This document shows, in pieces, positions 25,954-45,588 of a stretch of DNA of 64,000 nt. Source of the DNA: a phage; the sequence record PZ496581.1; one strand, given 5' to 3'. The notes under the pieces were generated by a model. The model had not been told where the DNA came from, did not search any database, and saw only the letters and a list, made by a program, of their open reading frames with translations. A program made the translations under genes and the position numbers. The stretch's first letter is position 1, and every line of letters starts with the position of its first letter.

Positions 25954-25982
25954 AATATTTTCCTCTCGTTAAGATAAATTCA

Positions 25983-26011
25983 TTATACTCCAACCATCCT
26001 TGGTTGTAAAC
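25983..26011 (-). promoter_or_regulatory. early-type promoter (-35 GTTTAC, -10 TATAAT)
   Basis: Minus strand reads GTTTACaaccaaggatggttggagTATAAT. Confidence 0.55.
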
Positions 26012-26015
26012 TATT

Positions 26016-26975
26016 TTATGATTTTAATGCATTCATTGCGTTAAAAAGTTTAGAATACTGCAACTGGAGATTCGTTACAACACTTTGAGCATCACGAAGC
26101 TTAGCTTGTGCTTTGTCAAGTTCAACGGATAGTTGGTCTACAGTGGCCTTGATTTGATTGTAATGGTAATCTTCGGCCGGAAGAAGGTCATTAGAAACAT
26201 TTAGTTTTACTGCAGACAGTTTGCACACATTTGGCAAACCTTTAAACATTGATTTACCCGAAGTAGAATATGCACCTAGAACTTCAGCATTGCCAGTTGG
26301 GGTTGCAGTAATTGACGCTTCGAACGTTGCATTTTCCTTTTTAAGATTTTGATAGTATTCAGAGTCTTTGTGCCACCATGACGCAGGAACCTTTTTACCA
26401 ATAGATACACGAGCCTGGATAGCGATATGGCCCTTATTCTTGATAGGGTCGATAATATTAAGCTCACGAGAATAAATTGCTTTAATCTGGTGGATATTAT
26501 CACCTAAAACTTCCAACGCTTGGTGGAATACACGAGCAACGTTATCATTCTTAGGTTTATACGTAAGAGTGAACTCGTTCTCACTGATAACCATGATTTC
26601 CAACTTATCGTAAGTATATTTCAAATGTTTCATGTTAATTGCTTGAGGACGAATACGAGAAGCAATGGCCATCAGATTGTTAAGGTTATTCCGGAACTGC
26701 TTAGCGAAATATTGTCCTTCACCGCCAATACAAAAATTACGAAGTTTCTGTTTGGCTAATAAACGGCTGAACTCACCATTTTTAATGAACTCTTTAACGG
26801 GTGTGTTAGTAACGCATTCAAATTGAGTAAACTTACGAGAATTAATCCCATAATATGAACAGATTTCCTCAATCTCTTCAGGAGTCTTTACAGGCATACG
26901 GATAGGATTAGGACCTGGGGTATATGCGTTCGAGGTAAATTCTTTGATAAGTTCTCTACGTGTAATAGAAGCCAT
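26016..26975 (-). CDS. hypothetical protein with C-terminal coiled coil, 319 aa
   Basis: ORF track; near-identical promoter module upstream. Confidence 0.6.
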   Translation of the reverse strand: MASITRRELIKEFTSNAYTPGPNPIRMPVKTPEEIEEICSYYGINSRKFTQFECVTNTPVKEFIKNGEFSRLLAKQKLRNFCIGGEGQYFAKQFRNNLNNLMAIASRIRPQAINMKHLKYTYDKLEIMVISENEFTLTYKPKNDNVARVFHQALEVLGDNIHQIKAIYSRELNIIDPIKNKGHIAIQARVSIGKKVPASWWHKDSEYYQNLKKENATFEASITATPTGNAEVLGAYSTSGKSMFKGLPNVCKLSAVKLNVSNDLLPAEDYHYNQIKATVDQLSVELDKAQAKLRDAQSVVTNLQLQYSKLFNAMNALKS

Positions 26976-43896: not shown

Positions 43897-43931
43897 TGAT
43901 GGTCCTTAGAAAGTAGGTTTATTGTTTACTA

Positions 43932-43939
43932 TATTTATA
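43932..43939 (-). promoter_or_regulatory. late promoter TATAAATA
   Basis: Minus-strand TATAAATA about 35 nt upstream of the 43896 ATG. Confidence 0.55.
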
Positions 43940-43940
43940 C

Positions 43941-43969
43941 AAAAAAGCCCCAACCTTTCGGAAGGGGCT
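43941..43969 (-). terminator. rho-independent terminator, second copy of the 33436-33464 element
   Basis: GCCCC...GGGGC hairpin plus U-tract; ends the tRNA/small-RNA transcript. Confidence 0.65.
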
Positions 43970-44011
43970 ATATACCTTGTCGGGTTCCCACCTGCTAAGG
44001 CAAGTGTTTGT

Positions 44012-44103
44012 ACGAAACGCCGGGATTCGAACCCGGTTATTAAGCAGTTGACGCTACTCAATATTTTTAAAAGGCCATATCTCGACCATATCCGAACGTT
44101 CCG
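44012..44103 (-). ncRNA. tRNA-like small RNA (canonical T-arm, paired acceptor ends; no clean cloverleaf)
   Basis: Minus strand has CCGGG-TTCGAAT-CCCGG and complementary 7-nt ends CGGAACG/CGTTTCG; about 92 nt. Confidence 0.3.
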
Positions 44104-44635
44104 TCAAAAACGCTACTCGGCTTACGGCAAAGATATTTCCTCGAATCGATAATTCTGTGCGCCGTTTCTGCTGTGATGTAAGGGGATATTAACGAATCAT
44201 AAAGATTTATTAAGACCAGTCCTTACTCAGGGAACATCAGTCCGACGACTTGCCGGTAGCGACCCGGCTTCTTATTTTGGCATATCATCAATTTGCTCTC
44301 GACGCCGACGCCATAGATTAATCGCTTCATAAACACATTCAGCATTTGGTATATGACGACAATAGTATAGTGATTCGCGTTTCTGGAACCGATGTTGTAA
44401 TGGAATTTCGTTTAAAAGGTCTTTACGGTCAAAGTATTCAAAACTAGTTAACCCTGAACGGTTTTTAAGAAACTTCCAATGTCCGAATTCATTTTGAAAA
44501 TAGACATAATCAGCATGCTGATACAGCGAATTAATTAACCTATCGGAAATAACTGTTTCACGTTCGTTAAAATAAAACGTTAAGTCATGAACTACCAGAT
44601 AAATATTGCCCTTTCATATTTTCCTCACTTGAAGT

Positions 44636-44711
44636 TGGTGCCTCTAGAAAGATTTGAACTCTCACCATTAACCTTAGAATGATTATATGCTATCCATTAC
44701 ACTATAGAGGC
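44636..44711 (-). tRNA. tRNA-Arg (anticodon TCT)
   Basis: Hand-folded cloverleaf: acceptor GCCTCTA/TAGAGGC, anticodon loop ATTCTAA, T-loop TTCAAAT, encoded CCA; 76 nt. Confidence 0.8.
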
Positions 44712-45362
44712 AATTAAATTATTTACAATATCTTCTTTATAAACTTCAGCATAATGAAGTTCATATATTTCCCATCCTAATGATTTTATAATATCATGGC
44801 GTTCTTTATAATAAGGGGCCAAAATCTTTTTCTTAGGATTGGAGTAATGTTGATTTCCATTAACTTCAATAATAATCTTTTTATCTATTAAAGCGATATC
44901 CGTGCAATACGCTCGGTTTTTAACCGGTTGGTATTCTTCAATAAATGAAATTCCGTTTTCTATTAATTTAGATTTCAAAAATTCACAAGGCACAGATTTA
45001 AATTTTGTATTTTTCTTCCAAGGATGTTTATCGGGGTTTTCATTCAACCATTTTTTCCGAGCATTAGATATTTTTATTCTAGATTCCTCAGAGTGTTCTC
45101 TACCTAATGAAGCGGCTGACAATTTTTGTCTAGTCTCTTCCGAAATTACTACAGGAACACCAGTCTTTTTAGATACAACATACTGGTTTAAATTACCTGA
45201 AGCTATACGTGCTTTATTCATTGCTGCAATGGCTGATTTAGAACTTTCTTTATACAATTCCAATTTAGGGTTGGATTTACACCATCTAGTGTGGTTAGCC
45301 ATCCATCCTTTAGGTTTATTAGAAATATCAAATTCCATATTACAATGTTTACAAATGCTCAT
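44697..45362 (-). CDS. freestanding endonuclease-like protein (N-terminal Zn finger, NUMOD-like repeats, C-terminal DUF559/Vsr-like nuclease motif), about 221 aa
   Basis: CKHC...HTRWC; IALIDKKIIIEVNGNQHY motif; lies inside the tRNA cluster; stop overlaps tRNA-Arg 3' end. Confidence 0.55.
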   Translation of the reverse strand: MSICKHCNMEFDISNKPKGWMANHTRWCKSNPKLELYKESSKSAIAAMNKARIASGNLNQYVVSKKTGVPVVISEETRQKLSAASLGREHSEESRIKISNARKKWLNENPDKHPWKKNTKFKSVPCEFLKSKLIENGISFIEEYQPVKNRAYCTDIALIDKKIIIEVNGNQHYSNPKKKILAPYYKERHDIIKSLGWEIYELHYAEVYKEDIVNNLIASIV

Positions 45363-45372
45363 TACCAATTAT

Positions 45373-45390
45373 CTCCTATAAATATAGGAG
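45373..45390 (-). promoter_or_regulatory. perfect 8-bp palindrome CTCCTATA-aa-TATAGGAG over the endonuclease RBS
   Basis: Hairpin would sequester the AGGAG SD of the 45362 ATG. Confidence 0.45.
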
Positions 45391-45435
45391 TATTTATTAT
45401 TTGGATAGAGCACTTAATTTACTTCGTTTAAATTA

Positions 45436-45507
45436 CTGGCGCACTTGGACTCGAACCAAGATAAAGGAGTTAACAGCTCCCCGTAATAACCTTTATACGA
45501 TGCACCA
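45436..45507 (-). tRNA. tRNA-Asn (anticodon GTT), no encoded CCA
   Basis: Hand-folded: acceptor TGGTGCA/TGCGCCA, anticodon loop CTGTTAA, T-arm CTTGG-TTCGAGT-CCAAG; 72 nt. Confidence 0.6.
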
Positions 45508-45513
45508 TTTGTT

Positions 45514-45588
45514 TGGTGACCCTGGCTGGTTTCGATCCAGCTACCTATCAGTTATGAGCTGACAGCTCTCCCATTGAGCTACAGGGCC
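45514..45588 (-). tRNA. tRNA with CAT anticodon (elongator Met or Ile2), encoded CCA
   Basis: Hand-folded: acceptor GGCCCTG/CAGGGTC, D-arm GCTC-AATGGGA-GAGC, anticodon loop CTCATAA; 75 nt. Confidence 0.8.

Follow-up and report, generated by a model that had tools for sequence, protein, structure and literature searches.

The tRNA cluster of the phage in sequence record PZ496581.1 contains an open reading frame (ORF) of 221 amino acids (aa) that is probably a mobile, free-standing homing endonuclease gene with a Vsr-like catalytic domain: a gene of a known kind, located in an established hotspot and with a predicted regulation of a familiar type. The stretch of DNA analysed, referred to below as the window, is 64,000 nucleotides (nt) long and comes from a Mosigvirus, an RB69-like coliphage. 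When 1.5 kb surrounding the ORF was used as a query, 238 phage records matched, the best of them at 97-99% identity. A sequence-only reading of the window had already pointed to an endonuclease-like gene of this length within the tRNA cluster, and the ORF listing places it there. On the minus strand the order is tRNA-'Met'(CAU), tRNA-Asn(GUU), a 73-nt leader, the ORF and tRNA-Arg(UCU) (Table 1).

The 3' end of the ORF runs into the tRNA gene that follows it. Nucleotides 44697-44711 serve both as tRNA positions 1-15 and as the final four codons of the ORF with its stop codon (GCC TCT ATA GTG TAA), which gives exact extent to an overlap that the sequence-only reading had described. Comparison with six homologues gave ratios of nonsynonymous to synonymous divergence (dN/dS) of 0.06-0.24, and the protein is therefore under purifying selection. 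The ORF has no paralogue within the window.

Table 1. The ORF, its predicted domains, its leader and the adjoining tRNA genes (window positions)
Feature	Position	Strand	Basis or detail
221-aa ORF, candidate free-standing Vsr-like (EDxHD/DUF559-type) homing endonuclease	45362..44697	minus	ATG at 45362; stop TAA 44699-44697
C2HC zinc-finger module (C4, C7, H24, C28), predicted	45279..45353	minus	ligand conservation; beta-beta-alpha in model, predicted local distance difference test (pLDDT) 96-97
Two tandem NUMOD3-like helices (ISEETRQKLSAASLG / HSEESRIKISNARKKWL), aa 73-106	45045..45146	minus	Pfam; model helices 75-85 and 92-108
Family-specific linker motif NPDKHPWKxxxKFKSVPCExLK, aa 109-130	44973..45038	minus	alignment of 44 sequences
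Vsr-like PD-(D/E)xK nuclease core, aa 131-210	44733..44972	minus	invariant E143, D155, E166, N168, G169, H172
Three-tier hairpin of the 5' untranslated region (UTR)	45352..45416	minus	outer tier UAAGUGCUC/GAGCAUUUG, including the G of AUG; middle CCAA/UUGG; inner CUCCUAU/AUAGGAG, including the Shine-Dalgarno sequence (SD)
Perfect 8-bp palindrome CTCCTATA-aa-TATAGGAG (inner stem)	45373..45390	minus	SD GGAG at 45373-45376, 10 nt upstream of ATG
T4-type late-promoter box AATAAATA, predicted	45391..45398	minus	abuts inner left arm; predicted +1 is A 45385
tRNA-Arg(UCU), cassette-linked	44636..44711	minus	ARAGORN; Rfam 57.6 bits
tRNA-Asn(GUU), 5' of leader	45436..45507	minus	ARAGORN; Rfam 53.6 bits
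tRNA-'Met'(CAU), left border of the slot	45514..45588	minus	ARAGORN; Rfam 59.4 bits

Domain architecture and active site

The sequence-only reading had recognised in the protein an N-terminal zinc finger, NUMOD-like helices and a C-terminal motif, IIIEVNGNQHY (aa 163-173), resembling DUF559 and Vsr-like PD-(D/E)xK nucleases, and all three elements are upheld. The zinc finger follows the pattern C4-x2-C7-x16-H24-x3-C28, its four ligands are kept in every relative that has the N-terminal module, and two of the relatives give Pfam zf-C2H2 matches. Pfam and PHROG matches were obtained for the 221-aa protein itself. In Pfam, NUMOD3 falls just below its cut-off (expectation value, E, 1.5e-3; 18.9 against 20.4 bits), DUF559 (PF04480) marginally exceeds its gathering cut-off (21.4 against 20.6 bits), and RAP (PF08373) does not reach its own (E 4.3e-5; 23.9 against 24.2 bits). 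Among 44 relatives, matches at E<=0.01 number 38 for RAP, 21 for MTES_1575, 18 for DUF559 and eight for NUMOD3. The linker that joins the helices to the nuclease core is specific to the family, with K112, W115, K120, S123, P125, C126 and K130 invariant in the alignment of 44 sequences, and may contact DNA.

An AlphaFold (AF2) model of the ORF built on 44 sequences has a pLDDT of 90.9. When this model was compared with known folds by Foldseek, structure 3r3p ranked first (E 4.8e-4); the fold matches are I-Bth0305I, DUF559 and Vsr, and the closest solved structure is that of a DNA homing endonuclease. The ORF has the catalytic fold of the Vsr-type PD-(D/E)xK enzymes, and a search for a nuclease fold, which the sequence-only reading had named as the check on its assignment, comes out in its favour. 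Sequence searches of the PDB with the single protein and with a 44-sequence profile found no nuclease, only the fold comparison giving one, and neither kind of query produced a sequence-level match to Vsr. No GIY-YIG domain is found in the ORF by Pfam, and BLASTP against T4 SegB gives no similarity; the sequence-only reading had likewise seen no GIY-YIG motif.

The candidate catalytic residues, as judged by alignment, are D155, E166, N168 and H172. Motif comparison and hhalign pair them with D196, E206, N208 and H213 of I-Bth0305I, in an alignment that carries a one-residue offset around the Asp and the His, and the x position of EDxHD is Asn in both proteins (N168 and N208); the motifs read LAIEVNGVYW[H]S in I-Bth0305I and IIIEVNGNQHYS in the ORF. 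D155, E166 and H172 are invariant in the 44 sequences and stand at the positions of the catalytic Asp, the invariant Glu and the His (D51, the F62 position and H69 in Vsr). The site of E166 is that of the 'invariant glutamate' described with the first report of the family (PMC2677866). Like I-Bth0305I, the protein places a NUMOD-type region N-terminal to the nuclease, NUMOD3 here and NUMOD2 in I-Bth0305I.

Distribution, alleles and neighbouring tRNA genes

The ORF is sporadically distributed, being held by about 12 of the 238 phage records with matching flanks, and a precise empty site is available in MM02, a combination typical of free-standing homing endonuclease genes. There, tRNA-Met is followed after 3 nt by a tRNA-Arg(UCU) of very different sequence, with neither tRNA-Asn nor the ORF. 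At an identity of at least 90%, the tRNA-Arg allele overlapping the ORF is confined to the 12 phage records in which the ORF is also present. Its sequence departs along its whole length from that of the resident Mosigvirus tRNA-Arg, and its D-arm is of the T4/Jiaodavirus type, so the gene arrived together with a foreign tRNA-Arg that took the place of the resident one. The presence/absence polymorphism, this swapped allele and a chimeric junction supply the evidence for mobility that was missing from the sequence-only reading, and extend it.

The chimeric junction is in DCP548, where a diverged copy of the ORF (79% aa identity) is joined to a tRNA-Arg (L007 2152-2227) whose 5' two-thirds are of the cassette type, the T-arm and 3' acceptor strand being those of the tRNA resident in Mosigvirus. 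The junction is a recombination endpoint within the tRNA gene. The acceptor stem of the chimera is broken, ARAGORN makes no call, and the Rfam match (37.6 bits) covers only model positions 6-65; with its acceptor stem unpaired, DCP548 probably lacks a working tRNA-Arg(UCU). Loss of the element has left its mark as well. In vB_EcoM_G2285 (L010 ~1586-1660) the tRNA-Asn and the leader are kept as far as TATAGGA, including the late box and most of the hairpin, and a deletion of ~1.1 kb has taken out the ORF together with the tRNA-Arg and the greater part of the gene after it, a footprint of element loss. The copy in vB_EcoM_PTE-Eco05 (25959-26622), which tblastn recovers in two pieces over 664 nt and which is annotated as two hypothetical proteins, is probably frameshifted and decaying.

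Comparison of carriers points to more than one arrival. Between the window and Mizar the 878-nt cassette differs at 5 nt, against 85 differences in the kilobase upstream and 43 in the one downstream; such close identity in backbones that have diverged fits recent spread. Window-type and DCP548-type copies have a synonymous divergence (dS) of ~2.3, while their immediately adjacent flanks of 500-600 bp differ by ~3-7%; such divergence at one site within similar flanks suggests separate invasions. A mobile cassette of ~800 bp that includes tRNA-Asn was considered and rejected: tRNA-Asn occurs without the ORF in AV115, AV109 and AV114, and the ORF without tRNA-Asn in DCP548 and PSD2001. The tRNA-Asn is a separate polymorphism and not an obligatory part of the element.

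Relatives of the protein are numerous. A search of 5.8 billion proteins yielded 131, and an exhaustive HMMER scan of 1.84 billion cluster representatives, with clusters defined at 50% identity, yielded 1,421 at E<=1e-3 and 628 at E<=1e-10. Most of them match only residues ~85-220, which comprise a single NUMOD3 helix, the linker and the nuclease. Their N-termini vary, with either the same zinc finger, sometimes duplicated, or helix-turn-helix (HTH) domains, a modular construction typical of homing endonucleases.

The relatives keep the company of tRNA genes. Homologues with 50-64% identity lie in the tRNA clusters of four other T4-like phage groups: in Klebsiella and Enterobacter phages the order is tRNA-Leu and then the ORF overlapping tRNA-Arg, in a Providencia phage tRNA-Arg, 44 nt and the ORF, and in an Acinetobacter phage tRNA-Asn, the ORF and tRNA-Ser. 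A scan of IMG/VR gave 55 loci on viral contigs, 44 of them non-redundant, with tRNA genes within 4 kb in 41 of the 44 and within 300 nt of an ORF end in 34. Arg(UCU) accounts for 18 of the 45 neighbouring tRNAs, as against 21 of all 331 tRNAs in these loci (6%), a hypergeometric P of 8e-15 that is optimistic, since the loci are related and not phylogenetically independent; in 13 of the 18 the tRNA-Arg immediately precedes the family member and shares its strand. Another three metagenome contigs, picked for length, all have tRNA neighbours, one a tRNA-Arg(UCU) 54 nt upstream and the other two an adjoining tRNA-Gly or tRNA-Glu.

Free-standing homing endonuclease genes usually lie beside the gene that holds their target (PMC2988022), and SegB recognises a tRNA T-loop motif (PMC2330249). 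On the simplest reading, then, this branch would target the tRNA-Arg(UCU) gene region. A target within the body of the resident tRNA-Arg, as suggested by the tRNA swap in Mosigvirus, is weakened by Jiaodavirus, where the tRNA-Arg is the same with and without the ORF. The Jiaodavirus site may instead span the tRNA-Leu/tRNA-Arg junction, which the insertion itself disrupts.

The position of the ORF has a close parallel in T4, where the order is tRNA-Ile, segB (221 aa), tRNA-Arg, rnaD and rnaC. The CAU tRNA of RB69-type phages is considered to be a lysidine-type tRNA-Ile (Nolan et al., PMC1524935), and the tRNA-'Met'(CAU) of the window is probably one. Read in this way, it puts the ORF in the exact segB slot, where the sequence-only reading had it. 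There may also be an alternative mobile occupant of the tRNA-Arg neighbourhood. AV110 has, directly after tRNA-Arg(UCU), a 177-aa T5orf172/MUG113 protein of a GIY-YIG-related kind (L009 1325-1858 minus; Pfam E 1e-8), and KpV477 has an annotated ORF of the same length and position (L071 1291-1824), the end of which shares 10 nt with tRNA-Thr; the Vsr-like ORF is missing from both phages.

Several other features of these tRNA regions were recorded. Downstream of tRNA-Arg in the window, a 264-nt stretch (44011-44275, minus) is 91.7% identical to T4 rnaD and rnaC, the stable 'species 2' and 'species 1' RNAs that lie 3' of tRNA-Arg in T4 and have no Rfam model; the short ORFs listed over it (e.g. 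44223-44345 and 43906-44061) are probably spurious. A 114-aa gene 3' of tRNA-Arg (ATG 44617, minus), intact in MM02 and Mizar, has an extra G in codon 3 in the window (GGG for GG, 44609-44611) that brings a stop after 10 codons, and is either a real pseudogene or the product of a homopolymer sequencing error. On a 155-kb phage contig from ENA (k141_49174) a second endonuclease-like ORF (2002-2655 of L012), with a NUMOD3 match and a weak Phage_endo_I match, lies just upstream of a family member with two tRNA genes between them, and tRNA clusters seem to collect several nuclease genes. On another contig (IMG/VR L021, 3509-3839) ARAGORN finds a transfer-messenger RNA (tag AQQQKALIT*) in a phage tRNA array beside a family member.

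The leader hairpin and a predicted late promoter

The sequence-only reading had placed the SD of the ORF within a perfect 8-bp palindrome, and the repeat is indeed exact. The hairpin it implied does not survive in that form, however: a 2-nt loop is sterically impossible, and the real stem is one of 7 bp with a 4-nt loop, the inner tier of three. As an inverted repeat alone it is not improbable, given that the window holds 20 perfect 8-bp inverted repeats where random sequences drawn from a Markov-1 model of its base-transition frequencies have 11 +/- 5, and the 46-nt hairpin alone is unremarkable (-8.1 kcal/mol, z = -1.8). Its significance comes from its position over the SD, from the larger structure of -22 kcal/mol to which it belongs, and from conservation in seven homologous loci. 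Folding of the 5' UTR, which the sequence-only reading had also proposed as a check, found a stable structure: the 96-nt leader reaches that energy with a z of -4.24, and none of 200 shuffles folds as well.

The UTRs were compared by folding each sequence and calculating pairing probabilities, column-wise covariation having been abandoned because loop indels misalign the arms. Read-through RNA (-80 to +30) folds at -22 to -29 kcal/mol in all seven loci, with a probability of 0.00-0.16 that the SD is unpaired (0.00 in the window), so that the SD and AUG are paired in a stable read-through structure, as in T4-type late-promoter/hairpin control. In the modelled late transcript -2.6 to -4.2 kcal/mol are left across the seven loci, and the probability of an unpaired SD is 0.38-0.76 in the five E. 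coli/Klebsiella loci and 0.25 in Acinetobacter. The Acinetobacter phage builds the equivalent structure from unrelated arms (CAUGAAGUA/UACUUCAUG), which argues for selection on the structure. Translational repression on read-through RNA, as the sequence-only reading suggested, is thus a prediction supported by the homologues, and the late-promoter box abutting the left arm would explain how it is relieved. In RB69-type late promoters this box occupies -13 to -6 and has A or T as its first base (PMC1524935), a spacing that would start late transcripts within the left arm. In the six distinct homologous UTRs the exact sequence TATAAATA stands at the corresponding position, where the left arm begins.

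Two other candidate promoters in the leader were rejected. A plus-strand TATAAATA at 45377-45384, in the loop and stem of the hairpin, is antisense to all local genes and was put down to the TATA-rich nature of the palindrome; the window has only three such matches on the plus strand, and this one is probably incidental. The conserved GTGCTCTATCC stretch, taken as a MotA-type middle promoter, has an unfit spacing to any -10 element and is better read as the outer and middle left arms.

Interpretation and comparison with known systems

As a homing endonuclease the protein would act much as its parts suggest. The zinc finger and the two NUMOD3-like helices would bind an extended DNA site, and the C-terminal domain, folded as in the 'EDxHD' enzyme I-Bth0305I, would cut it. 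During mixed infection it would cut the allele that lacks the endonuclease gene, within or beside tRNA-Arg(UCU), and recombinational repair templated by the carrier genome would pass on to the recipient the gene and its UTR together with the tRNA-Arg allele linked to them. Early and middle promoters upstream would have the gene transcribed passively within the tRNA precursor, the three-tier hairpin burying the SD and AUG on these read-through RNAs, and initiation at 45385 from the late box AATAAATA would yield late transcripts free of the 5' arms and open to translation.

Several observations weigh against this reading. Taken as a whole, the family has its best Pfam match in RAP, a domain associated with RNA metabolism in organelles. 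At the position of the last Asp of EDxHD (D97 in Vsr, D222 in I-Bth0305I), as placed by hhalign and by ungapped spacing from a conserved Gly, the family has a near-invariant Tyr (Y185), and D190 nearby is conserved in only ~70% of members, so that the active-site chemistry may differ. The box in the window differs from TATAAATA at its first base, which together with the 10-nt spacing between SD and AUG suggests that expression may be weak, and the modelled late RNA of Providencia still hides its SD (probability of being free 0.04). In five genomes the flanks are mosaic and show no clean gradient of co-conversion. Lastly, the identical tRNA-Arg of Jiaodavirus phages with and without the ORF means that, if the target lies in tRNA-Arg, the immunity of carriers cannot rest on an altered tRNA.

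Some of these features would also be expected of a decaying or domesticated relic that has ceased to home and persists only because tRNA-Arg expression is bound up with its 3' end and leader. Such a relic could have the Tyr at the last catalytic Asp, the non-consensus late box and the 10-nt SD spacing, its ORF does overlap an apparently functional tRNA gene, and one frameshifted and one deleted copy are known. Nevertheless this is improbable. A Tyr that is near-invariant across more than 600 clusters is a family trait and not a sign of decay, A or T at -13 is normal in RB69-type late promoters (PMC1524935), the low dN/dS indicates purifying selection, and the near-identity of the cassette in diverged backbones speaks for recent spread.

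The abundance of RAP matches raises a second alternative, in which the protein acts on RNA, as a RAP-like PD-(D/E)xK endoribonuclease or an RNA-binding protein with a part in the processing or protection of phage pre-tRNA. An RNA role would account for the presence of the family in tRNA clusters, but it is quite improbable when set against the other evidence. The closest solved structure is a DNA homing endonuclease, and NUMOD3, the zinc finger and the HTH domains of relatives are DNA-binding modules typical of such enzymes. A factor for tRNA processing should follow the tRNA cluster, whereas only ~5% of near-identical genomes have the ORF, and cases of its gain, its loss and its decay can all be seen. 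Its predicted expression, moreover, is late, after the early and middle transcripts that passively carry the tRNA genes. Hardly credible at all is a non-mobile Vsr-type mismatch-repair nicking enzyme or restriction-like defence nuclease, which would share the catalytic fold but is opposed by the lack of any sequence-level match to Vsr, by the lack in the ORF of a counterpart to the His-rich FWHHHHC of E. coli Vsr (its zinc-binding region), by the lack of a partner methyltransferase nearby in the ORF listing of the window, and by modules, a tRNA slot and a presence/absence pattern that are typical of homing endonuclease genes.

With the ORF read as a homing endonuclease gene, a 'hypothetical protein' of T4-like phages of E. 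coli, Klebsiella, Enterobacter, Providencia and Acinetobacter becomes a probable homing endonuclease with a defined architecture, and the variable tRNA content of Mosigvirus genomes is explained. One slot between tRNA genes, that between tRNA-Ile and tRNA-Arg, would have been colonised by unrelated endonuclease genes, the GIY-YIG gene segB in T4 and a Vsr-like gene here, with a late-promoter/hairpin leader common to the two; the T5orf172-type ORF just after tRNA-Arg in AV110 and KpV477 is a third candidate occupant. None of this changes the paradigm, as homing endonucleases, the ways in which they are regulated and their occurrence in tRNA clusters are already established. What is new, in that no published account of it was found in the searchable literature, is the tight link of a large uncharacterised Vsr-like branch to phage tRNA clusters, especially to tRNA-Arg(UCU), and the overlap of the ORF with a tRNA that travels with it. 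If these enzymes do target tRNA-Arg, they would be ready-made natural nucleases with related but diverged specificities, and would provide a route for horizontal exchange of phage tRNA genes. Phage tRNA genes are now known to matter in escape from host defences that cleave tRNA.

A bolder proposal, less likely than not to be correct, is that the whole subfamily (more than 600 clusters at E<=1e-10) is specialised on phage tRNA-Arg(UCU), cutting in or beside the gene and carrying tRNA-Arg alleles and neighbouring tRNAs between genera. The literature searched contained no description of a family of proteins devoted to a single tRNA gene in many lineages of phages. Were the proposal true, the subfamily would drive the turnover of phage tRNA repertoires and could supply the breaks by which tRNA genes used against host tRNA-targeting defences are amplified or swapped; SegB has reportedly been shown of late to supply such breaks at tRNA genes.

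Among characterised systems the nearest in protein structure are I-Bth0305I and the other 'EDxHD' endonucleases (Dassa 2009; Taylor 2011), which have the same order of an N-terminal NUMOD region and a C-terminal Vsr-like nuclease. The I-E-V-N-G...H motif is common to I-Bth0305I and the ORF, with D, E, N and H all corresponding (PMC3239194; PMC2677866), EDxHD members occur in phages, some of them free-standing like the ORF, and hairpins upstream of Vsr-like endonuclease genes have been reported before (PMC2677866). The differences are considerable, however. Sequence similarity to I-Bth0305I is marginal (hhalign E 6.8e-4, no phmmer match), the NUMOD2/HTH region of I-Bth0305I is replaced by NUMOD3 and a C2HC zinc finger, the loop before the His is one residue shorter, and a conserved Tyr takes the place of the motif's last Asp. 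The ORF lies between tRNA genes, outside any intron, intein or split gene. Taylor et al. assigned the Hef proteins of T4-like phages to the EDxHD family (Taylor 2011); tblastn of the ORF gave no match in Acj9 or LIMEstone. Proteins of the DUF559 (PF04480)/NGO0050 type and RAP (PF08373) share the Vsr-like PD-(D/E)xK core and the D...ExxG..H and R...GW motifs, but the former are mostly small, single-domain and bacterial, the latter are eukaryotic, organellar and linked to RNA, and both lack the NUMOD3/zinc-finger module and the phage tRNA-cluster context that the ORF has.

In setting and regulation the closest counterpart is T4 SegB. It occupies the same slot between tRNA-Ile(CAU) and tRNA-Arg(UCU), has the same length of 221 aa, recognises a motif in tRNA genes and carries tRNA genes along when it homes (PMC2330249), and segB has the late-promoter-in-hairpin control proposed for the ORF. 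The protein itself is unrelated, having a GIY-YIG catalytic domain, and segB ends 5 nt before tRNA-Arg whereas the ORF overlaps it. The segB leader (GGTCATATTTTGAGAACATAAATACTCTTAGAAATAGGAGATATTTATG; L072 2915-2965 minus) resembles those of the Vsr-like ORFs of PSD2001, DCP548 and the window (45363-45420), the likeness to the window leader lying in CATAAATACTCTTAG..AATAGGAGAT; either the leader belongs to the slot and ORFs are swapped behind it, or the likeness is convergence under the joint constraint of a late box and an anti-SD arm. The late-promoter/hairpin design is documented for I-TevI, I-TevII, I-TevIII, segB and Aeh1 mobE (PMC2988022). In I-TevI, I-TevII, I-TevIII and Aeh1 MobE, as in the design proposed for the ORF, the ribosome binding site is hidden on early and middle read-through RNA and a late promoter in the 5' arm gives a translatable late RNA. 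Those four belong to the GIY-YIG or HNH families, and three of the four are intron-encoded; for the ORF, the read-through RNA is a tRNA precursor.

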